A DNA stretch of 64,000 nucleotides from NCBI GenBank assembly GCA_900764215.1, contig CAAFNI010000008.1:1618-65617 (forward strand), written 5' to 3'. This stretch comes from an uncultured Sutterella sp. GTDB taxonomy: Bacteria > Pseudomonadota > Gammaproteobacteria > Burkholderiales > Burkholderiaceae_F. The stretch's first letter is position 1. Every line of letters starts with the position of its first letter. A program made the translations under genes and the position numbers. This document shows positions 1 through 17,299 of this stretch, in pieces. The notes under the pieces are model-generated. The model did no database searches and had not been told where the DNA came from. It saw only the letters and a list, made by a program, of their open reading frames with translations.

Positions 1-477
1 GGCACGCGCAATGGCAACGCGCTGCTGCTGGCCTCCCGAAAGTTCGGACGGCGTATGATGCTCCCACTCGAGCAAACCTACGCGTTGGAGCGCTGCCCGG
101 GCCAGTGTCCGGCGCTCGGAAGCTCCCATGCCGCGATAGAGAAGCGGAAGCTCCACATTCTCGAGGGCAGTGGTCCGAGCCAGAAGATTAAATCCTTGAA
201 AAACGAACCCGAGATACTTGCGGCGCAGAAGCGCACGCTGGTCTCGCGTCAGACTCTCGACGTGCATTCCGCTGAAGAGGTACGCCCCCGCCGTCGGGCT
301 GTCAAGAGCACCGATGATGTTCATGGCAGTCGACTTTCCTGAACCCGATGCGCCCATGATGGCCACGAATTCACCCTCATCTATCGAAAAGCTCACGCCG
401 CGCAAGGCTTCAAAAGCAGCATCACCCGTGCCATAGCGCTTGCGAATGTCAATCAACTCAACAAGAGGCTGTTCCAT
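1..477 (-). CDS. macB: MacB-like ABC efflux transporter ATP-binding/permease protein, N-terminal 159 aa only (continues beyond window start)
   Basis: Reverse translation of 1..477 gives [50 protein letters not shown]...[14 protein letters not shown] (Walker A plus ABC signature). Lies immediately downstream of the HlyD/MacA gene on the same strand. Confidence 0.8.
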
Positions 478-496
478 TGCGTCTCCTCAGGCCGCC

Positions 497-1771
497 TCAA
501 GCGCCCTTCTGTTGATCGACGACGACCTTGTCGCCCTCGGCAATATCGCCCGAGACAATTTCTGTCTGCATGCCGTCGGTTAATCCCGTGACGACGTCTA
601 CACGCACCGGCTTGCCGTCGCGCAGAACGTACACGGTTCTGCTTGCCTGTCCGTGCTGGACCAGCTCCTTCACCTTCTTGGATGCGTTGCCATGAGGCGA
701 AGGCCCTGGCATCATGGCTCCCATCTTCGACTTGCCGCTTTCCGACGCTGTCTTGGGGCGGAAGCGGAAGGCAGAATTGGGCACCAGAAGCACATCCTGC
801 TTGTCAGCCGTCGAAATCGTAGCCGAGGCCGTCATGCCCGGACGAAGCTGCATCTGCTGATTATCGACATTGAGATATGCCGTGTAGGTCACCACGTTCT
901 CCGTCGTCGTCGCACCATAGGAAACCTTTGTCAGTTCGGCAGGGAATCGCCGGTTCGGATAGGCACTGACCGTGAAGTACGCCTTCTGTCCCTGCTTGAC
1001 CACGCCGATGTCCGCCTCGTCAACGGCCACCTCGAGTTCAAGCTGGCTCAGATCAGTGGCAAGCGTCAGCAGCTCAACAGCCTGCAGACTCGCCGCGACC
1101 GCATAGCCTGGCTCAACCGAACGGGCAAGCACCACGCCATCGATGGGCGACTTGATGTCGGCCTTGGACAGGTCATTCTCTGCTGTTTGCAGCGACGCCT
1201 TCGCGTCGGCAATATTCGCATCCGCCACGGCGACCGCCGCCCGTGCCGTGTCGACTGAAGCAGCCTGCGTTTCAAGCTCGGTCTTGCTCGGCATGCTGCC
1301 CTTGGAAAGACGATTTAGCTCCTGCATGCGCTTGAACTTAAGCTCGGCCTCGCGAAGACTGGCCGCACTCTGCCGACGGTTGGCTTCGGCACTTTGGAGC
1401 GACGCACGGTTCTGAAGCACTTTCGCCTCAAGATTGCGCTTGTCCAACACGATGAGGCTCTGGCCTTTCCTGATTTCGTCATTGACGTCTACGCCCACCT
1501 CTCGCACAATGCCCGAGAGTTCGGAACCGATCGAGACGGTGCGCACCGGTGCGAGAGTGCCGTCTGCAGATACGCTCACATGCACGTCCCCGCGTTCAAC
1601 GTCCTCCGTCACATACTTGACGACATTGGAATTCTGCGTACCGGCGTACCAATACCAGGCCCCTGCCACCAATGCCGCCAAAACGCCGCCAGCCACCCAA
1701 AGAACATGCCGCGAGCGGCTTTCGTCCTTAAGCAGAAGCTTCGTGCGATCCTTGTTGTCTTGTTCGGTCAT
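497..1771 (-). CDS. macA: HlyD-family periplasmic adaptor (MacA-like membrane fusion protein)
   Basis: 424-aa ORF with an N-terminal TM segment, coiled-coil and beta-barrel MFP organisation. Its ATGA start overlaps the OMF stop at 1768..1771. Confidence 0.8.
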   Translation of the reverse strand: MTEQDNKDRTKLLLKDESRSRHVLWVAGGVLAALVAGAWYWYAGTQNSNVVKYVTEDVERGDVHVSVSADGTLAPVRTVSIGSELSGIVREVGVDVNDEIRKGQSLIVLDKRNLEAKVLQNRASLQSAEANRRQSAASLREAELKFKRMQELNRLSKGSMPSKTELETQAASVDTARAAVAVADANIADAKASLQTAENDLSKADIKSPIDGVVLARSVEPGYAVAASLQAVELLTLATDLSQLELEVAVDEADIGVVKQGQKAYFTVSAYPNRRFPAELTKVSYGATTTENVVTYTAYLNVDNQQMQLRPGMTASATISTADKQDVLLVPNSAFRFRPKTASESGKSKMGAMMPGPSPHGNASKKVKELVQHGQASRTVYVLRDGKPVRVDVVTGLTDGMQTEIVSGDIAEGDKVVVDQQKGA

Positions 1772-3165
1772 TTTGCACTCTCCTGTGCCTTCCAGGCGCC
1801 GCCCAGGGCGCGGTAGAGCTTAACGTGCTGAAGGGAAAGCTCCGTCATGTTGTTCGTCACGCTCTCCTTGAGGGTTAGGAGGCGCTGCTGCGCCTCCAAC
1901 AGCATCGAATAGTCGCCTAGACCTGATCGATACTCGAGTCCCGTCAATTCGTACGTTTTCTCCGTGTGTTGCAGAGCAGTCTGCAGAAGTGCCGTCCGGT
2001 CCTGTGCGGCCCGGATGCCATTGAGTGCATTGTCCGTCTCCTCAAGAGCCTTAACGATCACGGAGAGATAGCTGGCCTTTGCCTTGTCGAGTGCGGCGGC
2101 GGCCCTTTCTTCCTGCGCGGCCAGACTGCCCCAGTTGAGCACCGGCATTGATAGTGCGCCGATGAGGGAGGCAATGCCCGTCCCGCTCGCCCCAAGCGCG
2201 CCGAGCGTTGCCGCCTGCGTTCCGACGGACCCCGTAAGGGAAAGCGTTGGAAAGTAGCTCTCACGGGCGGCCTTGAGGTCAGCTCCCGACGCAAGAAGCG
2301 CAGCCTGAGCACTTCGGACGTCGGGACGCCTCATGAGCATCTCCGCCGGGATCGAAATCGCCAGCCGCACCGGCGCCTGCGGCACGGGCCCTACGCCCAG
2401 ATCGAGCTGGTCAGCGGGAATAGTCGTCAATCTGGCCAGCGCGTTTCTGTAGGTTGCTTCCGCCGCCTTCAGCTTCGGAAGGTTGGCTTTGGCGGCAGCG
2501 ACCTGAGAGAGCGCATCTTCGGCCTCTGACGTACTGCTCAGACCGGCTCCAGCACGCCATCCGGCGATCTCCGCACTTTCCTCATAGTTCTTGACGGTGT
2601 CCTCGCTCACTCGCAGAAGCGCCTGAGTGGAACGCAAATTGATGTAGGCTTGGGCCGTCTCGGCCTCAACGAGCGCCTGTGCGTCGGCCACGGAGATTTC
2701 GGTTGCAAGCGCCTCATAGCGGCGCGCGGTCTCGTTGGAAAGATCTGCACCGGCAAGGTTCCAAGACCATTTCACATCGGCCGCCGCAGAAAAACCGTTG
2801 CTAGATCCCGCATCCGCATGGCGATGCGATGCGTCGCCGCCGATCGCGGCCTCAGGGAAAAGCGCATATTGCGCTTCCGACAGTCCGGCTCTGGCCGAAC
2901 GCAAAGAAGCGAGCGCCGTGAGCACGTCAGCATTCGCACTGCGGGCCTTGGCAACGAGCGAGGAAAGCTTAGGGTCGTTCCAAGACTGCCAGAAATCGGC
3001 CGGATCGACCGGCGCCAGAGCCTCTATCGATGCACTCCAAGCCTTGGGAGACGCCTCCCCGACCATGGTCCTCATGTCCGGCATCTGCACGGCGCAACCC
3101 GAAAGGAACAGTGCACAGATCAGCATGCCTAGAGCCGACCTCTTCATCATCGTCGGATTCGTCAT
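1768..3165 (-). CDS. Efflux transporter outer-membrane factor lipoprotein, NodT/TolC family
   Basis: 465 aa; lipoprotein signal ...LFLSGCAV; TolC-like repeated coiled-coil/beta architecture. First gene of the OMF-MFP-ABC operon. Confidence 0.8.
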   Translation of the reverse strand: MTNPTMMKRSALGMLICALFLSGCAVQMPDMRTMVGEASPKAWSASIEALAPVDPADFWQSWNDPKLSSLVAKARSANADVLTALASLRSARAGLSEAQYALFPEAAIGGDASHRHADAGSSNGFSAAADVKWSWNLAGADLSNETARRYEALATEISVADAQALVEAETAQAYINLRSTQALLRVSEDTVKNYEESAEIAGWRAGAGLSSTSEAEDALSQVAAAKANLPKLKAAEATYRNALARLTTIPADQLDLGVGPVPQAPVRLAISIPAEMLMRRPDVRSAQAALLASGADLKAARESYFPTLSLTGSVGTQAATLGALGASGTGIASLIGALSMPVLNWGSLAAQEERAAAALDKAKASYLSVIVKALEETDNALNGIRAAQDRTALLQTALQHTEKTYELTGLEYRSGLGDYSMLLEAQQRLLTLKESVTNNMTELSLQHVKLYRALGGAWKAQESAK

Positions 3166-3384: not shown

Positions 3385-4077
3385 ATGTTCAAGCATCCTC
3401 GCCCCATCCTCATCGTCGACGATGATATCGAGCTCGTCACCCTTCTCGTCGACTATCTGCAATTGGAAGGCTTCGCCCCTGTTGCAGCTCACAACGGCAC
3501 TGAGGCTCTGGAACTCATATCCAAGCAGGAATTCGAAATCGTCGTGCTCGACGTAATGATGCCCGGCATGAGCGGCGTGGAGGTTCTCAAGCGCATTCGC
3601 GAAAAGAGCCAGCTTCCCGTTTTGATGCTCACCGCCAAAGGCGATCCGGTCGACCGCATCATCGGACTGGAACTCGGAGCTGACGACTATGTTCCCAAGC
3701 CCTGCCCGCCGCGCGAACTTGCAGCGCGTCTCAACGCGATACTGCGCCGAACAGCCAACATGCCCTCGGCCATTGCCCCCGTCGAAGCCGGACCTCTGAC
3801 AATCGACCCCGGCCGACGAGAGGCCACCGTCAACGGCAACGTCATCGATCTGACGGGTACTGAGCTTACTCTCCTGGAAGTACTTGCACGCAAAGCTGGC
3901 AGCCCTGTCCCCAAGGACGAGATCTATCAGAAGGTGCTCGGGCGCGTCATGCAGCGCTACGACCGCGCCATCGACGTTCACGTCTCCTCGATCCGCCACA
4001 AGCTCGCCGCCGTGCTCGGAAAGAGCGTTGCGATAGAGAGCATCCGAGGCGTGGGCTATCAACTAGTCGTCCGCTGA
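3385..4077 (+). CDS. OmpR-family response regulator, CpxR-like
   Basis: 230 aa. Receiver motifs LIVDDD, LDVMMP, LTAKG, GLELGADDY. Winged-helix C-terminus LTGTELTLL...DRAIDVHVSSIRHKL closely parallels E. coli CpxR. Confidence 0.85.
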   Translation: MFKHPRPILIVDDDIELVTLLVDYLQLEGFAPVAAHNGTEALELISKQEFEIVVLDVMMPGMSGVEVLKRIREKSQLPVLMLTAKGDPVDRIIGLELGADDYVPKPCPPRELAARLNAILRRTANMPSAIAPVEAGPLTIDPGRREATVNGNVIDLTGTELTLLEVLARKAGSPVPKDEIYQKVLGRVMQRYDRAIDVHVSSIRHKLAAVLGKSVAIESIRGVGYQLVVR

Positions 4078-4110: not shown

Positions 4111-5507
4111 TTGTTCATGTTCAACCGTTGGTTCAACACGCTTTTCGGCAAGCTCTTCGCCGGCTTTTGCGTCGTCATCCTGCTGACGGCCGCCGGCGTT
4201 TGGATGGCCGCCTATTCGGCTCAAAGCCAACAGAATGAAGATATCGGCCGCATTGAGTGGCGATTCATCGCGCCAAATCCGTCGACAGCGCCGTTGGCAT
4301 CTATGAGGTGGCTGGCAAGGAAGGCCTCATCACATGGCTTCTCAACGAACGCCTCAACACCAATCCCATTGTCTTTGTTCTCGACAGCAACGGCAACGAA
4401 ATCTCCGGCCGCAAGATCCCTGAAAAAGCGTATGCAAGTCTCGAAGCAATCCGCAGGCTCTCTGACCGGTCGGACGGCCCGCCTGAAAAACGCCTGCCGG
4501 TAAGAACCATTGAGATCGACAACGAGCCCTGTGAATTCTTCGCCGTCCGCACCGTCGCCTTCCCCGTGCGACTGATCCCGCCTGAACTCCACCATTTTCC
4601 GATTGCGCTGACGCTCTCGCTCGCCGCCTTTTTCACCCTGCTAGCCTCCTGGCTTCTTGCACGCCTGTACACACGCAGCCTTCACACGCTCGACAGCGCC
4701 ATTCGGCGCTTTGCCGACGGCGCCTTCGACACGCGCACCTCAGCCGAACTCTCCAACGGAGACGCCGAGGTTGCGAATCTTGCCCGCGTCTTTGACGGCA
4801 TGGCAGACAAGATTGAATCTCTGATCACGAGACAGAGAAGACTCTTTCACGACGTAAGCCACGAGATCCGCAGCCCGCTCGCCCGCATCGAGGTGGCGCT
4901 TGAGCTTGCTCGTCGCGCCCCTGAGCGCACACAGAATTCGCTTGGACGCATCGAAAAGGAGGTCGGCAACATCAACGCACTCGTCGAATCTCTCCTGACC
5001 TACGCGCGGCTTGAAAACGGCGCCAACATGACGAAGTCCCCCATCGGGCTTGCGGACATCATTGAAGGCGTTGCGGACGACCTCGGGTTTGAAGCCCAAC
5101 AAAAGAATGTCGCAGTAAAAACGATTCTCGAAGGCGATCCCGTCATCAATGCGGACGGCAACCTGCTCGCCAGAGCGCTCGACAACATTGCACGAAATTC
5201 GCTGCGCCACGCACCGGCGCAATCCCAAATCGTTCTATCCCTCTCTTCTGACGCCGAAAGCTTCATCATTCGTTGCCGAGACACAGGGCCGGGCATGCCC
5301 GAGGAGGAGCTCGTCAACATGTTCTCGCCCTTCGTGCGCGGCGCCAACGTCCCAACAGGAACGGGCTTCGGCCTGGGACTCGCCATTGCCAAGCGCAGCG
5401 TGACCGCGCACGGCGGAAGCATACTGGCACGCAACATCAAGCCTCACGGTCTTGAAACCGAGATCCGACTGCCTAAAGCCATGCAGATCAGATGCGACGA
5501 GTCCTGA
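4111..5507 (+). pseudogene. CpxA-like sensor histidine kinase, split by an apparent -1 frameshift near 4257-4275 (frame 1 ORF 4111..4503 carries TM1; frame 3 ORF 4257..5507 carries periplasmic/HAMP/HisKA/HATPase). Could be a sequencing error rather than a true pseudogene.
   Basis: Frame 1 has a start, TM1 (LFAGFCVVILLTAAGVWMAAY) and then non-coding-looking composition. Frame 3 begins after a TGA at 4254-4256 and encodes TM2, the H-box FHDVSHEIRSPLARI, and N/G1/G2 boxes (GTGFGLGLAI). Confidence 0.6.
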
Positions 5508-5526
5508 TTTGCGAAGCGCTGAAAAA

Positions 5527-5568
5527 AGCCTTGCGGCGAATCATCGCGGCAAGGCTTTCCTGTTTTAT
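5527..5568 (+). terminator. Rho-independent terminator after the kinase gene
   Basis: AGCCTTGCGGCG...CGCGGCAAGGCT hairpin followed by TTCCTGTTTT. Confidence 0.55.
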
Positions 5569-5744
5569 GCAACAGTTAATTTTGCTCGATTTTACGCAAA
5601 AAAGCCAGCGTCTTCTTCCATCTTGTCGATATAAGTCAACTTCTTTCGTCATAACATCCTATCCATCCTACTTCAGGCGCACAATGGAAAAACTGACGGC
5701 TTGACCAGCCTTTCAAAAAAATATTCTGGAAGAGGAGAACAGCA

Positions 5745-7796
5745 ATGAGCAACTATCTGACCGAGAATCTTCGTACCGTAGCATTGGTGGGGCACGGCTC
5801 CTGCGGCAAGACTTCCCTCATTGAAGCCATGCTCTACCGCACCGGCATGATTTCAGAACTCGGCTCCATCGAGCGCGGCAACACGATGTGCGACAACGAC
5901 GCACTCGAAAAACAGGTTCAGCACTCCATCCGTCTGGCTGTCGCCCATGTCGACACGGCTCTCCCCGACCTCACCCCCGTGCGCATCCATGTGCTCGACA
6001 CCCCGGGGTACCCCGATTACATTGGTCAGGACATGTCCGCACTTGACGCCGTCAAGTCCGTCTGCGCCGTGGTCGATGCCACCAAGGGCGTAGAGCTTCT
6101 GACGCGACGCATGATGGACATTGCGCAGGAACGCGGGCTGTGCCGCATGATCGCGATCAACAAGTTCGACGCCCCCGACGTCGACCTTGAACAGTTGCTT
6201 AAGGATCTGCAGGAAGTCTGGGGCCCTGGCGTTCTTCCGATCAACCTCCCCGCCAACAACCGCACCATCGTCATCGATTGTTTCGACAGGGACGAAGGAG
6301 AAGCCGACATCCTCAGCGTCGGCGAAGTTCACCGCGCTTTCATTGAAAAGATCATCGAGCAAGACGACGAAATGCTCGAGCATTATCTCGAGGAGGGCAG
6401 CGTTGACCCGCGCACTCTGCATCCCCTCATCACAAAGGCCCTGCGAGAAGGCACAATCATTCCCGTGTGCTTCGTTTCCGCCAAGAATCTGATCGGCATC
6501 CGAGATTTCATGAAGGTCATCATCCGCCACCTTCCCAGTCCGGCCGAAGCCAACGACGCACTATTCATTCATGCCGACGGCACGCCGTTCGTCACGCGTC
6601 CGGAGAAAGATCTCCCGGTCGTCGCCCAGGTCTTCAAGGTCGTCAATGACCCCTACATTGGAAAGATCGGCATCTTCCGCGTGCATCAGGGCACGATTCA
6701 GAAGGACACCACGCTCTACGTCGACGACAACAAGAAAGGCGTCAAGGCTGCTCACCCTCTGCTCCTTCAAGGCAAGAACACCAGCGAAACCGACTTTCTC
6801 AGTCCGGGCGACATCGGTGCTCTCGCCAAGATTGACGAACTTACTTATGGTTCGATTCTGCATTCGGATCCGAACCTCAGCGGCATACGCATGCGTCCGA
6901 TCAACTTCCCGAAACCGATGTTCGGTCTCGCGATTGCACCGTCCCGCCGCGGCGATGAAGCCCGCATGGGCGAAGTCCTCAACAAGATGCTCGCCGAAGA
7001 CCCGACGATGGCTGTCGACCATGACGCTGTGCTCAACGAAACTGTGATTCGCGGCCTGACCGAAATGCACGTCCGTTCAATCCTCGACCGCATGAAGGTC
7101 AACTTCAAGCTTGAGGTCGTCACAGGCACGCCGAGCGTTCCGTATCGCGAAACCATCACTGCTCCGGCCGAGGGCCACGCGCGCCACAAGAAGCAGACGG
7201 GCGGTGCCGGTCAGTTCGGCGAAGTCTACCTGCGCATCGAGCCACTCGAACGCGGCGCCGGCTTTGAGTTCCACGACGAGGTCAAGGGCGGCGTGATCCC
7301 GTTCAACCTGATTCCCGCCGTTGAAAAAGGGGTCCGTGAGGTACTCGATTCCGGCTACTTGGCAGGCTATCCGATTCAGGACGTCAAGGTCACCGTCTAC
7401 GACGGCAAGAGCCATCCAGTCGACTCGAAGGAAGTCGCCTTCGTCGCCGCCGGCCGCAAGGCCTTCCTTGATGCGCTTGCCAACGCTCAACCCAAGATTC
7501 TCGAACCGATCGTACGCATCGAAATTACGGCGCCCGACATGTACATGGGCGACCTCGCCGGCGATCTCGCCAGCCGCCGCGGCCAAGTTTCAGGCACAGA
7601 CTCGTTGCCGGGTGGCCTGATGGAAATCACCGGCGTCGTGCCGCTGTCGGAACTCGACGGTTATGCGACCCGCCTGCACGCACTCACTCAGGGCACCGGC
7701 AGCTGGTCTATGGAACTTGACAGCTACCAGCCCGTCCCGGCTCAAAAGCAGGCTGAACTTGCCGGCAAGTTCCACCGCGAAGACGACGACGAATAA
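5745..7796 (+). CDS. Elongation factor G paralog (EF-G2-like translational GTPase) with an atypical switch II (DTPGY instead of DTPGH)
   Basis: 683 aa. G1 GHGSCGKTS, G3 VLDTPGYPDY, G4 NKFD. EF-G domain IV/V motifs VPYRETIT and KKQTGGAGQFG. Strong SD GGAAGAGGAG upstream. Confidence 0.85.
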   Translation: MSNYLTENLRTVALVGHGSCGKTSLIEAMLYRTGMISELGSIERGNTMCDNDALEKQVQHSIRLAVAHVDTALPDLTPVRIHVLDTPGYPDYIGQDMSALDAVKSVCAVVDATKGVELLTRRMMDIAQERGLCRMIAINKFDAPDVDLEQLLKDLQEVWGPGVLPINLPANNRTIVIDCFDRDEGEADILSVGEVHRAFIEKIIEQDDEMLEHYLEEGSVDPRTLHPLITKALREGTIIPVCFVSAKNLIGIRDFMKVIIRHLPSPAEANDALFIHADGTPFVTRPEKDLPVVAQVFKVVNDPYIGKIGIFRVHQGTIQKDTTLYVDDNKKGVKAAHPLLLQGKNTSETDFLSPGDIGALAKIDELTYGSILHSDPNLSGIRMRPINFPKPMFGLAIAPSRRGDEARMGEVLNKMLAEDPTMAVDHDAVLNETVIRGLTEMHVRSILDRMKVNFKLEVVTGTPSVPYRETITAPAEGHARHKKQTGGAGQFGEVYLRIEPLERGAGFEFHDEVKGGVIPFNLIPAVEKGVREVLDSGYLAGYPIQDVKVTVYDGKSHPVDSKEVAFVAAGRKAFLDALANAQPKILEPIVRIEITAPDMYMGDLAGDLASRRGQVSGTDSLPGGLMEITGVVPLSELDGYATRLHALTQGTGSWSMELDSYQPVPAQKQAELAGKFHREDDDE

Positions 7797-7820
7797 GCAC
7801 CGTTGAACTCAACCCCGGCA

Positions 7821-7855
7821 AGGCCGCCGCGTTCTAACGCGGCGGCCTTTTTTCC
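7821..7855 (+). terminator. Rho-independent terminator after the EF-G paralog
   Basis: AGGCCGCCGCG-TTCTAA-CGCGGCGGCCT followed by TTTTTCC. Confidence 0.65.
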
Positions 7856-7930
7856 TGTATTTCAAGCTCCGCAGACCATTCCTTCCTTATAATCTGTCTC
7901 CTCCACGTTCACTTTCCTAACTTTCATACC

Positions 7931-8161: not shown

Positions 8162-8493
8162 ACAGCGCGCTGAACCCGTCCGCTCGCACGACACAAGGCC
8201 GGATGTCCAGGACTGTCAGTCCCAGACAACGGCCTTTGCGCGTTTTCGCATGAGCAGATCTAGATAAAATACCCCAAACTGCCGAGTTTTCCCGTTTTTC
8301 AACTTTCGTTGGCAGTAAACTTAATCATCGTGCGTCTCTGTCCTTTGATAGGCGGCACCGACTGATTCCGCAACGGCGCGACTGCCGCACCGTTGCTTGC
8401 ACCATTGCGGCTCTGCAAAGCCATAGCATTGTCGTTGTAATCGTGTGGCCAACAGCTATCGTATCGCGCGTTGGTCTTTTTCTCGGAGCTTAT

Positions 8494-10305
8494 ATGCGAA
8501 CCGTATACTCTGGCCTGGTTGATGAATCCTTCATCGGTCAGACCGTGACTCTTTTCGGCTGGGCTCATCGTCGTCGCGACCACGGCGGCGTGATCTTCAT
8601 TGACCTTCGCGACCGTGAAGGCATTGTTCAGGTCGTTTGCGACCCGGACCGTCCCGAAGTCTTCGCTACGGCCGACAAATGCCGCAACGAATTCTGTCTC
8701 AAGGTCGTTGGCGTCGTGCGCGCCCGTCCGGAAGGCACGAAGAACGAAACGCTCGTTTCCGGCGGCATTGAAGTTCTCTGCCATGAACTTGAAATCCTCA
8801 ATCCGTCGGTCACGCCTCCGTTCCACCTCGATGACGAAAACCTCTCCGAGACGACGCGCCTGACGTACCGCGTGCTTGATCTTCGCCGCGGCGTCATGCA
8901 GAAGAACCTCCGCACGCGCTACCGCGCTGCCATGGCCTTCCGTAAGTTCCTCGACAAGAACGGCTTCATCGACATCGAAACGCCGATGTTGACGCGCTCC
9001 ACGCCTGAAGGCGCTCGCGACTATCTCGTACCGTCCCGCGTTCAGGACGGTTGCTTCTTCGCCTTGCCGCAGTCTCCTCAACTCTTCAAGCAGCTTCTGA
9101 TGGTTGCCGGTTTTGACCGTTACTATCAGATTGTCAAGTGTTTCCGAGACGAAGATCTTCGAGCCGACCGCCAGCCTGAATTCACGCAGGTTGATATTGA
9201 AACGTCCTTCCTCAACATGGATGAAATCCGCTCCTTGATGGAAGAACTCATCCGCACGGTCTTTAAGGAAGTCCTCGACGTCGACCTCAAGAACCCGTTC
9301 CCGGTCATGAAGTGGGACGACGCCATGGCTCAGTACGGTTCCGACAAGCCCGACCTTCGCGTTCATCTGAAGCTTGTCGAAGTGACCGACGTTGTTGAGA
9401 ATTCCACGTTCAAGGTATTCTCCGGCGTCAAGTCTCTGCACAACGGCAAGGTTGTCGCCCTGCGCGTACCGGGCGCAGCCTCCATGCCGCGTTCCGAAAT
9501 CGACGCCTATACCGAATTCGTCAAGATTTACGGCGCCAAGGGTCTCGCCTACATCAAGATCAATGATCTCTCCAAGGGCCGCGAAGGTCTCCAGAGCCCG
9601 ATCGTCAAGAATCTTTCCGACGAAGAGCTCAACACGATCATCGAACGCACTGGCGCCCAAGACGGCGACGTCGTGTTCTTCGGGGCCGACAAGGCCAAGA
9701 TCGTTTGGGACAGTCTCGGCGCACTCCGCCTGAAGATCGGTCATTCCGAATTCGGCAAATCCCACGGCCTCTTCACGCCGGGCTGGCAGCCGCTCTGGGT
9801 CATCAACTTCCCGATGTTCGAATACTCGGAAGAAGACCAGCGCTGGGTGGCCTGTCACCATCCGTTCACCAGTCCGCTCGACGGCCATGAGGACCTTCTT
9901 GTCTCCGACCCAGAACATGCCTATGCCAAGGCCTACGACATGGTTCTCAACGGTTGGGAAATCGGCGGCGGCTCCATCCGCATTCACCGTGAAGAAGTTC
10001 AGGAAAAGGTCTTTGAAGCCCTCAAGATCGGACCGGAAGAAGCCCGTCAGAAGTTCGGTTTTCTGCTTGACGCCCTCCAGTTCGGCGCGCCTCCGCACGG
10101 CGGCCTCGCCTTCGGTCTCGACCGCATCGTTACGATGATGTGCGAAGCAGACTCCATCAGAGACGTCATCGCCTTCCCGAAGACGCAACGTGCCCAGTGC
10201 CTGTTGACGCACGCTCCGGCTCCGGTTGACGAAAAGCAGCTGCGCGAACTCCACATCCGCCTGCGCAACGAGCCGAAGAAGGAACTTGAAATTGCCGGTC
10301 AGTAA
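8494..10305 (+). CDS. aspS: Aspartate--tRNA ligase
   Basis: Start taken at MRTVYSGL (ATG at 8494), by homology to E. coli AspS MRTEYCGQL. Class II aaRS motifs [33 protein letters not shown]. The track ORF begins 51 nt upstream at a GTG. Confidence 0.95.
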
Positions 10306-10384: not shown

Positions 10385-11452
10385 CTAAGCACCGGAAGTC
10401 TTCTCCGTCCACTCGCTCTTTGCAGGACGGCGACCGCCTGATCTGCGACGCATCCATACGTCGCTCCAATCACATCCTATTGCTTTTGGAATCTCAACCT
10501 CAATCTCAAGTGCGGGATACTCCCTGCGCAACCTGGCAGCAAGTGCATACGCCCCAGCCTGACCGGTGAAGCTCCTGTCGTTGTCGCCAAAAACGACAAC
10601 CTTCTTCACGCCGCCGGGTACTTTCGTGAAGTTCTGAAACCCTCCCACGCTCACCGCGCTCCAAACAGGCATTTTGAAAATCGTTCTTGCCGATAGCGCC
10701 GTTTCAATGCCCTCGGCGATGCCAAGAACGGCTCCAGGCTCCCCAAGCCTGATGAGGCCTCCGCGGGTGCTGCCCGCGTAAAGCTTCTTAGGACACTCGA
10801 CAGGAGCCTTTGCTCCATCAGGCGTAAGGTAGGTTCTATGCAACGTGACGATCCGCCCATCATCGTCAGTGACAAGTGCTAGCATCGCCGGCCAGCGTTC
10901 GTGAGACTTATCGCCATCGTCGAGTTCTTCCCAGTAATCCAGCAACGGATGACTGCGAAGCTCCCCGATCGATCTGCCATAAAGTCCTCGGGAGGCAAGA
11001 TACAGCTTGACTGGATCGGTCGAGGGAACCTTTGAGAGCGCTTGCGCCTCCTGCCAGACCGCTTCGATCTTGGCCAGTCTTCGTCGGCATCTAGCCTCTG
11101 CCACGTTTGGCCTCGTCTCCACACTCCGCAAGGATTTCGTTTCCCCGCGCTGAAATTCCGGAAGTCCCAAAATTCTCTCAAGATAATCGAGCGCATCCAT
11201 AAAACGCTCGCCTCTCCACTTGCGCAAGAGTTCAAGCCCGTCACCGCAACCACAGCCACGACAGAACCAATGTCCATCCAGCTTATCCTTGTAGAATGAA
11301 AAGCGGTCCCTGCCGCCGCAGAGCGGACACGGTCGATTCAAGCGCAGAAGCATTGTCTCTGGAATGCCGGCACCGATAAGAATTTCCAGCCAACGACCGG
11401 AAGCCGCATTCTGAACACGTTGAATTCTCTCCCCCAGTTGCGGATCTTGCAT
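10385..11452 (-). CDS. Primase-like protein: primase-helicase-type zinc-binding domain plus Toprim domain (DUF7146/toprim family), orphan
   Basis: CPLCGGRDRFSF...HWFCRGCGCGDG zinc ribbon; Toprim acidic motifs IAEGIETALSA and VVFGDNDRS. Start chosen at MQDPQLGER, preceded by a perfect SD AAGGAGGA. The track ORF extends to 11524. Confidence 0.7.
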   Translation of the reverse strand: MQDPQLGERIQRVQNAASGRWLEILIGAGIPETMLLRLNRPCPLCGGRDRFSFYKDKLDGHWFCRGCGCGDGLELLRKWRGERFMDALDYLERILGLPEFQRGETKSLRSVETRPNVAEARCRRRLAKIEAVWQEAQALSKVPSTDPVKLYLASRGLYGRSIGELRSHPLLDYWEELDDGDKSHERWPAMLALVTDDDGRIVTLHRTYLTPDGAKAPVECPKKLYAGSTRGGLIRLGEPGAVLGIAEGIETALSARTIFKMPVWSAVSVGGFQNFTKVPGGVKKVVVFGDNDRSFTGQAGAYALAARLRREYPALEIEVEIPKAIGCDWSDVWMRRRSGGRRPAKSEWTEKTSGA

Positions 11453-11530
11453 GCGGTCCTCCTTCATAGAAATCCGGCGCGGGAACCTCTGTCGGGCAGG
11501 GGTTATTGACCCTGTCGGCAACAATATTGC

Positions 11531-14599: not shown

Positions 14600-17299
14600 T
14601 TGAATCCCATCCGCCCCAAGCTCAAGCGAGCCCTCTGTCCGGAAAACGTCGCCGTCATCGGCGCCAGCGACAGAACCGCCAGCCGAGGTTCCTTCGTCTG
14701 GCGCGCCGTCGCCCGCTCAAAGCTTCTCAAGAATGCATGGGCAATCAATCCGAAGTACAAGTACATCGGTGAACGCCCCTGCTTCTCGAGCATCAACGAA
14801 GTGCCCGGCAACATTGATCTGGCGGTGATTTCCCTGCGTGCGGACCGCATTCTCAAGGCATTGATCGACGCAGGCGAACGTGGCGTGGCCTATGCGCTCA
14901 TCACCCCGGACGAAAACGCCTACGCAAGCGATGTGACTTGGCTGCAAAAACTGAAGCTCGTGGCCGATCAGTACGGCCTGCGCCTCATCGGCCCCGACTC
15001 ACTGGGGCTCATGAACCCCGGCCTCGGCGTCAACGCGAGCTACTGGCCCAATCTGCCGCGCCCAGGCAACATTGCGCTCATCACACAGTCCGGCATGATC
15101 GGAACCGCACTGCTCGACTATGCACAAGGCGCCGAACTCGGGTTTTCAGGTGTCGTTTCAACGGGGGCCGCGATCGATGTCGACATGCCTGAACTCATCG
15201 ACTACTACGCGAACGACAAAAACACGCGCGTCATCGCCCTGCACATCGAAGGCATTCGCAGACCCCGCGAGTTCTACTCATCACTCCGAGCTGCATGCGC
15301 CCGCAAACACGTCGTCATCCTAAAAGCAGGCAGCGGTTCTGGCTACGCCGCCGACCGAATCGCCTGTTTCAAGATGGGCACAGACGCAGGCAGCGAGGGC
15401 GCCCTCGCAGCACTTGTCGAGCGCGCAGGCGCAACGCTCGTTCCGTCTTTTGAAGAATTCACGGCGGCCGTCTCCGGCTTTGCCACCAACCGTCTGCCCC
15501 GCGGCAACCGCATCGCCGTTATTGCCAACGGATCGGGTTTTGCTTCGCTCACGGCCTCGGCGGCACAAGCCTGCGGCATTGATCTCCACGGTCTCAGCAA
15601 CTCCACCATCAAGGACCTCAAGACTGCCTACCCTTCTCAGCAGATTGCGGTAAACCCCATCAACGTCGGAGCCACCGCTTCACCAGAACGCTATAGAAAA
15701 ACGCTCCAAATCGTCCTTCAGGATCCGATGATTGACGGCGCACTCGTCGTCGTGGCCCCGAGTCCGGTCACGACAATCGACCCCACGCTCAAGCTTCTCG
15801 CCAAAACGGCCGCCGGTTCCTACAAACCCGTCATAACTGCCTGGATGAGCGACCGCATCGCACTGAGCGTGCGCAAACAACTTCGTTCCGTCCCCAACGC
15901 CCCCATATCCGCCATTCAATCCCCAGTGGCCGCAGCGCTAGCCTTCGGTTATCTTGCAGCCGAAGCCCGCAGACGCTCAGATCGCCTGAGCATTCCGCCC
16001 GAATGGTCGGTGGAGCTGAATGCCGCCAAGCTCGCAGAAGCTCGAGCCATCGTCAACGGCGCTCGCCTGGAAGGGCGCCATTCGCTGTCTCCGAGCGAAA
16101 CCGGGCGCCTTCTCGCCTGCTTCGACATCCCTGCTGTGCCGCTTCGCGAAGTCCGAACGCTCGAGGAAGCGGGAGCCGCCGCAGACGAGCTCGGATGGCC
16201 CGTAGCCCTAAAGGTGATCGCCCCAGGCCTGCGGCACAAATCCGACATAGGTGGCGTAGCGTTAGACATCAAGGATCGCGACAACCTTGCTGCCGCTTGG
16301 CAACGCATGAAAAAGAATCTCTACAAATACTCTCCGATGACGCCGATGGAGGGTGCAATCGTCCAGAAAATGGCGCCGCATTCGTCGGTGCGGGAACTGC
16401 ACCTCGCCATCGCCTATGACAACGTGCTTGGTCCTGTTGTCGAGTTTGGCGCCGGCGGCATCGGTTCCGAGCTCTACCAGGACAAGAAGGCCGCACTTGC
16501 ACCGATCACGTTGTGCGAGGCCGCCCGCCTCGTTGAGCGCACTCGCATCGCACGTGCCCTGGGCTCCTATCGAGGGCTGGCTCCGGCCGATAGAACGCTC
16601 GTTGCTCAGATCCTCTGCAGGCTCTCCGTACTTGCAGCCCGCATTCCGGCCATTCGCGATCTTGCCATCAATCCGCTCGTTTGGACTGACGGCGGCGCTG
16701 CGGCAATCGATGCCGATGTAAATCTGAACGAATCCCCCGTCAAGCCAGCACTCGACTACCCTCACCTCACGGTTTGCGCCCCCCCTTGGGAGGAAGGCCG
16801 CAGCGTGACGGTCGGCGACACGGAACTCGCGCTGCGAACCTTCGTGCAAGGCGACTTTCACCCGCTCAAGCGCTTTCTCGGCCGCTTGTCGGACAAAACC
16901 TTCTACCTGCGCTTCCACACGTCCGCCCACCTCTCCGACGAGCGCATCTGCGAACTCACCTCGCTAGACTATGCACGTGAGGGTGCTTGGGCGCTGGCGC
17001 GGAACGGCGAAATCCATGCAGTTGCACGCTGGCGCCTGACGGGAGAACATGACGAGGCTGAATTCGGCATCGTCGTCGAGGACGCATGGCAACGCCGCGG
17101 GCTTGCCCGCGTGCTGATGGCCCACCTTGAAGCCTCCGCTGCCAGACGCGGCGTTACCCGCTTCATCGGTCACGTACTCAAAGGCAACGAGGCCATGCAA
17201 GGCATGATGACGGCCATGGGCTACGTACTCGGCGAAGGCGACCACCGAGACACCGACCCGTGGGTGAAAAGCCTCTCATCTCCTGTGGATCACCTATAA
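14600..17299 (+). CDS. Bifunctional acyl-CoA synthetase (NDP-forming)-like / GNAT protein lysine acetyltransferase (Pat/YfiQ-type)
   Basis: 899 aa. N-terminus LKRALCPENVAVIGAS aligns with Salmonella Pat LEALLRPKSIAVIGAS. C-terminal GNAT motif QRRGLARVLMAHLE. TTG start with a GGGAGG SD. Confidence 0.85.
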   Translation: MNPIRPKLKRALCPENVAVIGASDRTASRGSFVWRAVARSKLLKNAWAINPKYKYIGERPCFSSINEVPGNIDLAVISLRADRILKALIDAGERGVAYALITPDENAYASDVTWLQKLKLVADQYGLRLIGPDSLGLMNPGLGVNASYWPNLPRPGNIALITQSGMIGTALLDYAQGAELGFSGVVSTGAAIDVDMPELIDYYANDKNTRVIALHIEGIRRPREFYSSLRAACARKHVVILKAGSGSGYAADRIACFKMGTDAGSEGALAALVERAGATLVPSFEEFTAAVSGFATNRLPRGNRIAVIANGSGFASLTASAAQACGIDLHGLSNSTIKDLKTAYPSQQIAVNPINVGATASPERYRKTLQIVLQDPMIDGALVVVAPSPVTTIDPTLKLLAKTAAGSYKPVITAWMSDRIALSVRKQLRSVPNAPISAIQSPVAAALAFGYLAAEARRRSDRLSIPPEWSVELNAAKLAEARAIVNGARLEGRHSLSPSETGRLLACFDIPAVPLREVRTLEEAGAAADELGWPVALKVIAPGLRHKSDIGGVALDIKDRDNLAAAWQRMKKNLYKYSPMTPMEGAIVQKMAPHSSVRELHLAIAYDNVLGPVVEFGAGGIGSELYQDKKAALAPITLCEAARLVERTRIARALGSYRGLAPADRTLVAQILCRLSVLAARIPAIRDLAINPLVWTDGGAAAIDADVNLNESPVKPALDYPHLTVCAPPWEEGRSVTVGDTELALRTFVQGDFHPLKRFLGRLSDKTFYLRFHTSAHLSDERICELTSLDYAREGAWALARNGEIHAVARWRLTGEHDEAEFGIVVEDAWQRRGLARVLMAHLEASAARRGVTRFIGHVLKGNEAMQGMMTAMGYVLGEGDHRDTDPWVKSLSSPVDHL

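Follow-up and report, generated by a model that had tools for sequence, protein, structure and literature searches.

An EF-G2-type elongation factor G paralogue of a gut Sutterella, with tyrosine in place of the switch-II histidine

When a paralogue of elongation factor G (EF-G) carries tyrosine where canonical translational GTPases have a switch-II histidine, is this a peculiarity of the gene or of its family, and what does it say about GTP hydrolysis on the ribosome? A gene in 64 kb (64,000 nucleotides; hereafter the window) of the chromosome of an uncultured gut Sutterella near S. wadsworthensis raises both questions. EF-G2 proteins are widespread, yet the reports on them conflict – GTPase activity in Thermus, none in Bacteroides, and minimal activity in Mycobacterium. 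To our knowledge EF-G2 has been studied in these three organisms only, and we know of no beta- or gamma-proteobacterial member that has been characterised. Sutterella is common as a commensal of the human gut, and Bacteroides needs its EF-G2 to colonise the gut; if Sutterella EF-G2 sustains slow translation without GTP hydrolysis in starvation, it would bear on a general strategy of gut bacteria. Judged from its sequence, the Sutterella gene is a real, intact, conserved and mostly ordinary member of a described family, ordinary because EF-G2 proteins as a rule lack the ‘catalytic’ histidine.

5745–7796, + strand: EFG II/EF-G2-type elongation factor G paralogue, 683 aa, with domains G+G′, II, III, IV and V (NF009891 profile; full-length alignment to Thermus EF-G)

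The open reading frame starts with ATG, and its product matches all five EF-G domains in Pfam (GTP_EFTU, EF-G_D2, EFG_III, EFG_IV and EFG_C) and aligns with Thermus EF-G over its full length (E 6e-117, HMMER). Together with the motifs described below, this bears out a preliminary description of the gene as an EF-G paralogue with all of the domain landmarks. The same description took it for an accessory copy with no canonical fusA in the window, and a tblastn search of the 64 kb with canonical EF-G agrees, in that the sole EF-G-like match is at 5763–7760 and no second EF-G-like gene was found there. EFG II proteins are “always accompanied by another EFG” in the genome (Margus 2011, PLoS One 6:e22789), and because of this pairing rule we assume that a canonical fusA is present alongside EF-G2 in the Sutterella genome.

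In a comparison with EF-G1, EF-G2 and Tet profiles, as the preliminary description had suggested, the protein scores above the cut-off of NCBIfam NF009891 (PRK13351.1-1, an ‘elongation factor G’ equivalog), with 822.3 bits (cut-off 597) over residues 1–675 of the protein and positions 1–676 of the 681 in the model. Scores fall below the cut-offs for canonical EF-G (TIGR00484; 443 bits against 659), the Bacteroides EF-G2 (NF058620, EFG2_Bacteroid; 450 against 1000), the actinobacterial EF-G2 (NF009377; 487 against 890) and Tet(M)/Tet(O) (tet_protect; 247 against 775). The closest PDB matches to the G domain are Thermus EF-G-2 (1WDT, 77 bits) and Mycobacterium EF-G2 (9K0Z, 65 bits), with canonical EF-Gs at 47 bits or less; over the full length, similarity to Thermus EF-G-2 is 363 bits versus 395 bits to canonical EF-G. 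A PDB search with the representative P0130 ranked canonical EF-Gs first, and a query built from P0231 gave the Bacteroides EF-G2 sequence.

The signature positions of the subfamily point the same way. EFG II proteins are marked by Gly16 and Leu25 (Ala and Thr in EFG I) and by Ser at the position of the RGITI Thr, and the beta/gamma subgroup has the G2 pattern xxHSL and no RGITI (Margus 2011, PLoS One 6:e22789). Further signatures lie in domain II (Thr291, Gly333 and Lys/Arg352, equivalent to Thermus EF-G-1 316, 360 and 379) and in a positively charged loop I of domain IV (KK, positions 469–472; Margus 2011). The Sutterella protein has Gly16, Leu25, Ser61, Gly343 (equivalent to 333), Lys362 (equivalent to 352) and an RHKK loop I; it also resembles the beta/gamma EFG II proteins of that study in its VQHSI switch I (xxHSL), in keeping only DxPG of G3, and in having divergent domains I–III and a conserved domain IV. 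It departs from typical EFG II proteins in two respects. Mapping of domain II through an alignment to 1EFG places Gly343 at 360 and Lys362 at 379, but Val299 rather than Thr at 316, where 81% of EFG II members have Thr; and Sutterella EF-G2 proteins share a five-residue insertion, A72–L76, after switch I. On these signature positions and the G-domain similarity to 1WDT and 9K0Z, we assign the protein to the beta/gamma-proteobacterial subgroup of the EFG II (EF-G2) subfamily, which is an already described family. With canonical EF-G (EFG I; TIGR00484) it shares the five domains, about 33–35% identity over the full length and the motifs at the tip of domain IV, but it lacks AHIDAGKT, RGITI and DTPGH and is encoded outside the str operon. 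A search of the fusA2 literature for Burkholderia, Ralstonia, Sutterella, Xanthomonas and Lysobacter found nothing relevant.

Whether the protein belongs to the lineage of the Bacteroides thetaiotaomicron EF-G2 (FusA2, BT_2167; PDB 7UVP and 8DMF) had been left open, and the answer is divided: the two belong to the same ancient subfamily, but to different subgroups. Both are EFG II proteins of gut commensals that lack the switch-II histidine, and both are accessory copies, the Bacteroides one beside an essential fusA. The Bacteroides protein differs in its length (718 aa), in having Ser at the switch-II position (IDCPGSDDF, versus Tyr), in its G1 (GSSGSGKT) and in its G2 (YGYSV within EYGYSV, versus VQHSI); the alignment of the two breaks after query residue 505, the Bacteroides profile scores 450 bits of the 1000 needed, and Cur-dependent regulation is specific to Bacteroides. 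Bacteroides EF-G2 promotes translocation with no GTP being hydrolysed, and carbon starvation induces it. Work by Han et al. in 2023 reportedly concerns a 26-residue region of this protein.

5997–6011, + strand: switch II/G3, D85-T86-P87-G88-Y89; the Tyr89 codon TAC (6009–6011) stands in place of the canonical translational-GTPase His

The switch II of the Sutterella protein reads VLDTPGYPDY (residues 83–92), and Tyr89 aligns exactly with the switch-II His of Thermus thermophilus EF-G (‘vldtpgy’ against ‘iidtpgh’, HMMER), so the replacement noted earlier is correct. The accompanying statement that DTPGH is universally conserved does not hold for this family. Among 80 orthologous loci from beta- and gamma-proteobacterial reference genomes, position 89 is Tyr in 53, Phe in nine, Ala in eight, Leu and Gly in four each, Met in two and His in none, even as the flanking D85, T86, P87, G88, D91 and G94 are 97–100% conserved. 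His occupies the position in five of 146 EFG II family representatives, and just one of the top 146 has the canonical trio of AHxDxGKT, RGITI and DTPGH. The solved EF-G2 structures read DAPGY (Thermus), DTPGY (Mycobacterium) and DCPGS (Bacteroides) at this position; the residue that follows DxPG was left undiscussed by Margus 2011 (PLoS One 6:e22789). Loss of the switch-II His thus marks the EFG II/EF-G2 family and not the Sutterella gene, and since it is the family norm, the change to Tyr is expected here and not a discovery in itself.

5790–5819, + strand: P-loop G16–L25, GHGSCGKTSL; EFG II signature Gly16 and Leu25, with Gly18 and Ser19 replacing the Ile and Asp of AHIDAGKT
5916–5930, + strand: switch I/G2 equivalent V58–I62, VQHSI instead of RGITI; Ser61 at the Mg-coordinating Thr position and His60 at the hydrophobic-gate Ile position
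7182–7220, + strand: domain IV loop I, R480–G492 (RHKKQTGGAGQFG); decoding-centre tip with the positively charged EFG II motif
7401–7430, + strand: domain IV loop II, D553–K562 (DGKSHPVDSK); motif in 122 of 146 unbiased representatives

The other motifs fall into two classes. A G1 P-loop is present as first described, but it is non-canonical, with GHGSCGKT (residues 16–23) against AHIDAGKT; in the 80 orthologues G16, G21, K22, T23 and L25 are 99–100% conserved, G16 and L25 completely so. Switch I has H60 in 79 of the 80 loci and S61 in all of them, with Leu (69) or Ile (10) at position 62, and G4 is NKFD (139–142). The nucleotide-binding pocket is intact, with GxxxxGKT, DTPG, NKxD, SA and a Ser where Mg is coordinated. 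Absent is the set that canonical EF-G uses for hydrolysis activated by the ribosome – the switch-II His, the Ile and Asp of the P-loop, and RGITI, which includes an Arg and the gate Ile. Domain IV is the best conserved domain among the 80 orthologues and contains VPYRETIT (465–472) and KKQTGGAGQFG (482–492); R480, H481, K482 and K483, which precede QTGG, are all invariant in the clade, and the loop I motif occurs in 136 of 146 unbiased family representatives, 72 of which read RHKK. An AlphaFold2 model built with 25 Sutterella sequences (78–86% identity) has a mean pLDDT of 62.5 and a pTM of 0.47, with the G domain below 50, and is too poor in quality for interpretation.

These features suggest that Sutterella EF-G2 most likely binds GTP and acts as an alternative ribosome factor whose GTPase is stimulated by the ribosome weakly or not at all. 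We favour, with somewhat more confidence than doubt, a fuller reading in which this five-domain EFG II factor would bind GTP and the ribosomal A site like EF-G and insert domain IV into the decoding centre, with hydrolysis stimulated by the sarcin-ricin loop being weak or absent; it would therefore serve, beside the canonical fusA product, as an alternative translocase that works slowly, as a ribosome factor in times of stress, or as both. Neither part is assured. The preliminary description had held that Tyr at this position predicts slow hydrolysis or none, and this inference is unsafe because Thermus EF-G-2, with the same Tyr, is reported to be GTPase-active on the ribosome, while the Mycobacterium EF-G2, also with Tyr, has minimal activity; hydrolysis is thus not readable from Tyr alone. 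Nor is translocase activity guaranteed, because fusA(ts) is not complemented by Mycobacterium EF-G2, for which the role of a stress regulator has been described instead.

An alternative that we consider unlikely, though deserving of attention, is a GTPase-active translocase of the Thermus type, in which Tyr89 is tolerated, hydrolysis is activated otherwise (e.g. by another pocket residue such as His60), and the difference from EF-G1 lies in kinetics or conditions of use and not in energy use. Thermus thermophilus EF-G-2 (PDB 1WDT/2DY1), for which ribosome-dependent and intrinsic GTPase, poly(Phe) activity and translocation have been reported, provides the closest solved G domain, and it shares with the Sutterella protein both the Tyr (DAPGY) and the P-loop His17 (GHAGSGKTTL). 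The near-invariance of His60 at the hydrophobic-gate Ile position (79 of 80) and the conservation of the acidic and aromatic G′ residues E205, D207, E212 and Y214 would also fit. The Thermus protein nevertheless belongs to another sub-subgroup with a different switch I (HRTTV against VQHSI), and it is the one of the two whose GTPase and poly(Phe) activities were measured. Three observations argue against this alternative: orthologues accept Ala, Gly, Leu and Met at position 89; the switch-I Arg position, R/K in 128 of 147 EFG II representatives, is Val in Sutterella and variable in its clade; and in the canonical Mycobacterium EF-G1 H88Y nearly abolishes GTPase and R62Q lowers it (Baid & Sengupta 2025; bioRxiv 10.64898/2026.05.25.727771).

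The Mycobacterium smegmatis EF-G2 (PDB 9K0Z/9K10), which ranks second among the PDB matches to the G domain, suggests another course. Like the Sutterella protein it is an accessory copy with Tyr for the catalytic His (DTPGYADF), no RGITI and no P-loop Ile or Asp; it differs in its P-loop (GPSGGGKT, with no His17), its G2 (QRSV) and G4 (TKLD), and its actinobacterial subgroup (NF009377). In Mycobacterium EF-G2 the equivalent Tyr98 is directed away from the gamma-phosphate and the G domain is displaced from the sarcin-ricin loop; the protein has minimal GTPase, neither recycles ribosomes nor complements fusA(ts), and has been described as regulating stress and not as a translocase (Baid & Sengupta 2025; bioRxiv 10.64898/2026.05.25.727771). 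A non-translocating factor of this kind in Sutterella would occupy the factor site of 70S or 50S under stress and modulate or protect ribosomes, with no part in elongation or recycling. We give this reading a rather small probability: conservation in the protein is highest in the decoding-centre loops of domain IV, which fits an A-site factor, and both the Bacteroides and the Thermus EF-G2 do translocate.

It is improbable that catalysis in the beta/gamma clade has been rewired and not lost, with His60 of switch I positioning the water in cis as a relocated catalytic His. The switch-II residue, hydrophobic or small (Y/F/A/L/G/M), would then be dispensable, with the near-invariant His60 next to the Mg-binding Ser; an analogy would be the GTPases whose catalytic Gln is replaced by a hydrophobic residue. 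A weaker proposal, and a likelier one than relocation to His60, is that the protein may parallel Bacteroides EF-G2 as a hydrolysis-independent, energy-saving translocase in a second gut phylum.

3385–4077, + strand: OmpR-family response regulator; best NCBIfam match CpxR, below cut-off (213 bits against 341)
4117–5507, + strand: sensor histidine kinase; best match CpxA, below cut-off; 1-nt deletion near 4273

The gene had been placed next to a CpxRA-like envelope-stress system, and CpxR and CpxA are indeed the best matches of the two adjacent genes, but both lie below the curated cut-offs (174 bits against 486 and 222 against 800 for the kinase), the kinase gene is frameshifted in the window, where one nucleotide near 4273 is missing by comparison with intact orthologues of 461 aa, and the linkage of EF-G2 to the two-component system is found within Sutterella only. 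The contig of one relative (P0001), 98% identical, ends short of the frameshift. Clustering of the flanking ORFs of the 80 loci revealed no universal EF-G2 neighbour, the contexts being lineage-specific. A MacB-MacA-OEP operon adjoins the gene in Sutterella, and three Aquabacterium/Rubrivivax loci (L046, L065 and L067) have the same operon type immediately upstream and in the same orientation; with the architecture that EF-G2 has in common with Tet proteins, this could suggest a ribosomal protection or antibiotic-response protein akin to Tet(M)/Tet(O) and tied to the MacAB-type efflux operon. We regard that as very improbable in view of the tet_protect score (247 bits against 775), the invariant domain-IV loops of EF-G type and the presence of efflux genes near only about 7 of the 80 loci.

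That Tyr89 is a sequencing error at TAC, or a lesion confined to one strain in a gene that is decaying, both raised in the preliminary description, can be set aside with near certainty, as no supporting point was found and Tyr is present in 119 of 120 clusters of close Sutterella homologues (one with 908 members), the ORF is full length at 80 of 80 loci, dN/dS is 0.12–0.21, and one orthologue is 79% identical in DNA yet 92% in protein. The gene is under strong purifying selection. Exact-sequence look-up found no identical copy of the protein on record. Recent horizontal transfer was also considered and ruled out, because the GC content around the gene (0.57–0.58) fits the range of the window (0.54–0.62) and the gene matches the surrounding chromosome in composition.

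5525–5566, + strand: hairpin (5525–5558) and weak T tail after the kinase gene, probable terminator; −28.2 kcal/mol, z −3.3
5680–5685, + strand: −10-like hexamer CACAAT in GGCGCACAAT; putative promoter, from upstream conservation
5733–5737, + strand: Shine-Dalgarno AGGAG, 7 nt before the ATG, read directly from the sequence
7820–7857, + strand: intrinsic terminator after the EF-G2 gene, a 13-bp GC-rich stem (hairpin 7820–7849) then a T run; −31.5 kcal/mol, z −5.1

The gene is probably its own transcription unit, apart from the neighbouring two-component system, consistent with the earlier view that it has its own Shine-Dalgarno sequence and terminators on both sides. The upstream hairpin, which a consensus terminator scan did not report, probably separates it from the kinase gene. 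No credible RNA family emerged when the 5′ leader and the flanks were scanned against Rfam; the top match was isrD at the terminator, with 25 bits against a gathering threshold of 37. The CACAAT block is the only conserved block upstream of seven Sutterella-group orthologues and may act as a promoter element of EF-G2.

The gene under study is a real open reading frame, and it lies in the window among the following features:

497-1771, minus strand, MacA-like adaptor
1768-3165, minus strand, outer-membrane factor
3385-4077, plus strand, OmpR-family regulator
4117-5507, plus strand, histidine kinase, frameshifted near 4273
5745-7796, plus strand, EF-G2 gene, 683 aa
7931-8161, plus strand, FmdB-type zinc ribbon, 76 aa (TIGR02605)
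8443-10305, plus strand, aspS

The EF-G architecture of the protein is complete, with the Pfam domains GTP_EFTU, EF-G_D2, EFG_III, EFG_IV and EFG_C all detected (E-values 1e-7 to 1e-40), and every EF-G motif quoted in the preliminary description is present. Switch II reads V83-L-D-T-P-G-Y89-P-D-Y92, as described there, with the Tyr codon TAC at 6009-6011, and Tyr89 aligns with the switch-II His of Thermus thermophilus EF-G (HMMER, E-value 6e-117, residues 4-672). The strong ribosome-binding site (AGGAG, 7 nt 5′ of the ATG) and the stable hairpins on both sides of the gene (5525-5558, and 7820-7849 followed by a T run) were likewise recovered, and a tblastn search of the whole window with canonical EF-G as query found no other EF-G. 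The sole block common to the upstream regions of the Sutterella-group EF-G2 loci (L001-L009) is GGCGCAnAAT, at 5677-5686 in the window and approximately 55-65 nt before the start codon, which resembles a -10 element. These regions show no evident -35 element, and no Rfam family matches the EF-G2 leader. Sutterella EF-G2 proteins also have a five-residue insertion, ALPDL (A72-L76; window 5958-5972), located after switch I and ahead of the strand that runs into DTPG; it is missing in relatives of 47% identity or less.

Signature positions and G-domain similarity place the protein within the EFG II (EF-G2) subfamily. It passes the NCBIfam equivalog model NF009891 (‘elongation factor G’; 822 bits, cut-off 597) and fails the canonical EF-G model TIGR00484 (443 bits, cut-off 659), the actinobacterial EF-G2 model NF009377 (487 bits, cut-off 890) and the Tet protection protein model (247 bits, cut-off 775). 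Membership of the Bacteroides EF-G2 lineage, which the preliminary description had left open, is not supported by NF058620 (450 bits versus a cut-off of 1000). EFG II proteins have a P-loop signature of Gly16 and Leu25, lack RGITI and have Ser at the Thr position (xxHSL in gamma- and beta-proteobacteria), and are further marked by Thr291, Gly333 and Lys352 in domain II and a positively charged loop I in domain IV (Margus et al. 2011). The Sutterella protein has G16, L25, VQHSI (S61), Gly343, Lys362 and RHKK, the sole mismatch being Val299 where Thr is expected. With the G domain as sole query, the top-scoring PDB entries are Thermus EF-G-2 (1WDT, 77 bits) and Mycobacterium EF-G2 (9K0Z, 65 bits), with canonical EF-Gs reaching no more than 47 bits.

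Judging from the alignments, His is absent from switch II family-wide, and DTPGY in the Sutterella gene, though correctly observed, is what membership of this family leads one to expect. The universality of DTPGH among translational GTPases is a textbook statement to which EFG II is a known exception. An exhaustive HMMER search over 1.84 billion cluster representatives gave 146 full-length sequences among the best 150 matches, just one of which combines AHxDxGKT, RGITI and DTPGH; in the alignment of representatives among these best 150 matches the residue after DxPG is Y in 80, F in 25, A in 10, H in 5 and L in 5, plus others. A one-genome-per-species scan yielded 598 relatives, and we analysed the best 80 of these (48-78% identity; Sutterella, Burkholderia, Paraburkholderia, Ralstonia, Rubrivivax, Variovorax, Pseudomonas, Lysobacter, Luteimonas and others), in which position 89 is Y in 53, F in 9, A in 8, L in 4, G in 4, M in 2 and His in none, giving an entropy of 1.65 bits, whereas the residues on either side are conserved to 97-100%. 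The EF-G2 proteins of solved structure also lack the His: Thermus EF-G-2 (LLDAPGYGDF) and Mycobacterium EF-G2 (LIDTPGYADF) have Tyr, and Bacteroides thetaiotaomicron EF-G2 (7UVP/8DMF; IDCPGSDDF) has Ser. The chain in 7UVP/8DMF has Bacteroidetes EF-G2 features (GSSGSGKT, EYGYSV, DCPGS; 718 aa), but the PDB sequence file names it ‘Tetracycline resistance protein TetQ’, which can mislead searches. Published work already covers the EFG II family with its beta/gamma subgroup, as well as the relaxed G3 motif and the replacement of His by Tyr, and public genomes already carry the gene under the annotation ‘elongation factor G’.

The nearest database clusters are Sutterella proteins, with a 98%-identical cluster of 908 members, one of them named S. 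wadsworthensis, and other named matches to S. megalosphaeroides, S. faecalis and S. seckii. Gene decay is rejected by dN/dS values of 0.12-0.21 against five Sutterella-group orthologues (dS being close to saturation) and by an S. wadsworthensis orthologue with 92% protein identity but only 79% DNA identity; a sequencing error at the Tyr codon is rejected because orthologues also have Tyr, DTPGY occurring in 119 of 120 clusters at 78-98% identity. The GC content of the region is that of the remaining window.

The nucleotide-binding residues G16, G21, K22, T23, S61, D85, T86, P87, G88, N139, D142, S245 and A246 are essentially invariant in the 80-sequence clade, and binding of GTP/GDP therefore appears to be under selection. 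Judged against roles reported for mycobacterial EF-G1 in sarcin-ricin-loop activation, the canonical GTPase-activation apparatus is dismantled at the level of its residues: the P-loop Ile and Asp of canonical EF-G are replaced by Gly18 and Ser19, the switch I Arg and gate Ile by Val58 and His60, and the switch II His by Tyr89. Domain IV is best conserved in the 80-sequence clade, with a mean top-residue frequency of 0.81 versus 0.64-0.73 in the other domains, and both of its tip loops are invariant there, in part through ascertainment because the 80 loci were retrieved by peptide patterns from the same loops; in the unbiased representative set loop I is found in 136/146 and loop II in 122/146. 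These comparisons show a predicted GTP-binding EF-G homologue under purifying selection, with the domain IV tip (the A-site probe) as its best-conserved part. His60 (window 5922-5924), at the hydrophobic-gate Ile position of RGITI and beside the Mg-binding Ser, is present in 79/80 of the beta/gamma-proteobacterial clade (L001-L080), and the position varies in the wider family (H 31, I 27, F 17, M 14); that this clade-specific, nearly invariant switch I His compensates for the lost switch II His seems very improbable.

We propose that Sutterella EF-G2 would bind the ribosome in EF-G fashion and promote or stabilise translocation-like states with little or no ribosome-stimulated hydrolysis, and might act as an alternative factor when EF-G1 is limiting or GTP is scarce. 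Bacteroides EF-G2 supports translocation without hydrolysis, is induced more than 200-fold when carbon is limiting and is required to colonise the gut. The GTPase activity of Mycobacterium EF-G2 is minimal; the protein neither recycles nor complements fusA(ts), and a role under stress has been proposed for it. Its Tyr98, in place of the catalytic His, points away from the gamma-phosphate, and H88Y in EF-G1 nearly abolishes ribosome-dependent GTPase activity. Thermus EF-G-2, with the same Tyr, nonetheless shows GTPase activity, both intrinsic and ribosome-dependent, as well as poly(Phe) activity. Because these precedents diverge, firmness extends to the identity of the protein, loss of its GTPase activity is likely only, and its physiological role is a guess by analogy.

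The neighbouring two-component system had been described as CpxRA-like, and CpxR and CpxA are indeed the best matches of the regulator and kinase, but with scores well below curated cut-offs. Compared with intact orthologues of 461 aa at further Sutterella loci (L081, L082, L085), the kinase gene lacks 1 nt near 4273, the orthologues having GCACGAAAATCC versus GCGC-CAAATCC in the window; approximately 52 N-terminal codons from the ATG at 4117 are out of frame with the 416-codon ORF at 4257-5507, and putting one base back yields a protein of 463 aa that is colinear with them. The break could mark a pseudogene or a fault in the assembly. S. wadsworthensis assemblies have the same gene order with the kinase intact, and other Sutterella species have a regulator but no kinase beside the EF-G2 gene, or several kb inserted. 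Beyond Sutterella, none of the window's EF-G2 neighbours is kept and there is no universal neighbour among the best 80 of 598 loci.

The MacB/MacA/outer-membrane-factor operon (window 1-3165, minus strand) adjoins the EF-G2 gene and is divergent from it in Sutterella (L081-L085), with the regulator between. From the divergent arrangement of operon and two-component system, we infer that the efflux operon is the more likely target of the latter. In Aquabacterium/Rubrivivax (L046, L065, L067) the efflux operon is directly upstream of EF-G2 on the same strand; its presence beside EF-G2 in about 7/80 loci may be chance. In a group of uncultured Burkholderiales (L028, L035, L040, L043, L044, L048, L054, L055, L061, L068, L076) EF-G2 is preceded by a conserved same-strand block that encodes an ABC-2-type permease and two further proteins, one a large membrane protein (about 618 aa) and the other about 351 aa long. 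The small FmdB zinc-ribbon ORF, missed by some gene callers (L081, L084, L085), is directly upstream of aspS, a pair also found in S. wadsworthensis and the orthologue locus L001. Convergent with aspS is a primase-like gene (10385-11524, minus strand; Zn_Ribbon_Prim, DUF7146 and Toprim_3) that is also found at this position in assemblies of S. wadsworthensis; it could be what remains of a mobile element. An 899-aa protein (14600-17299, plus strand) ends in a GNAT domain and also contains CoA-binding, succinyl-CoA-ligase-like and ATP-grasp domains, the architecture of a Pat-type protein acetyltransferase.
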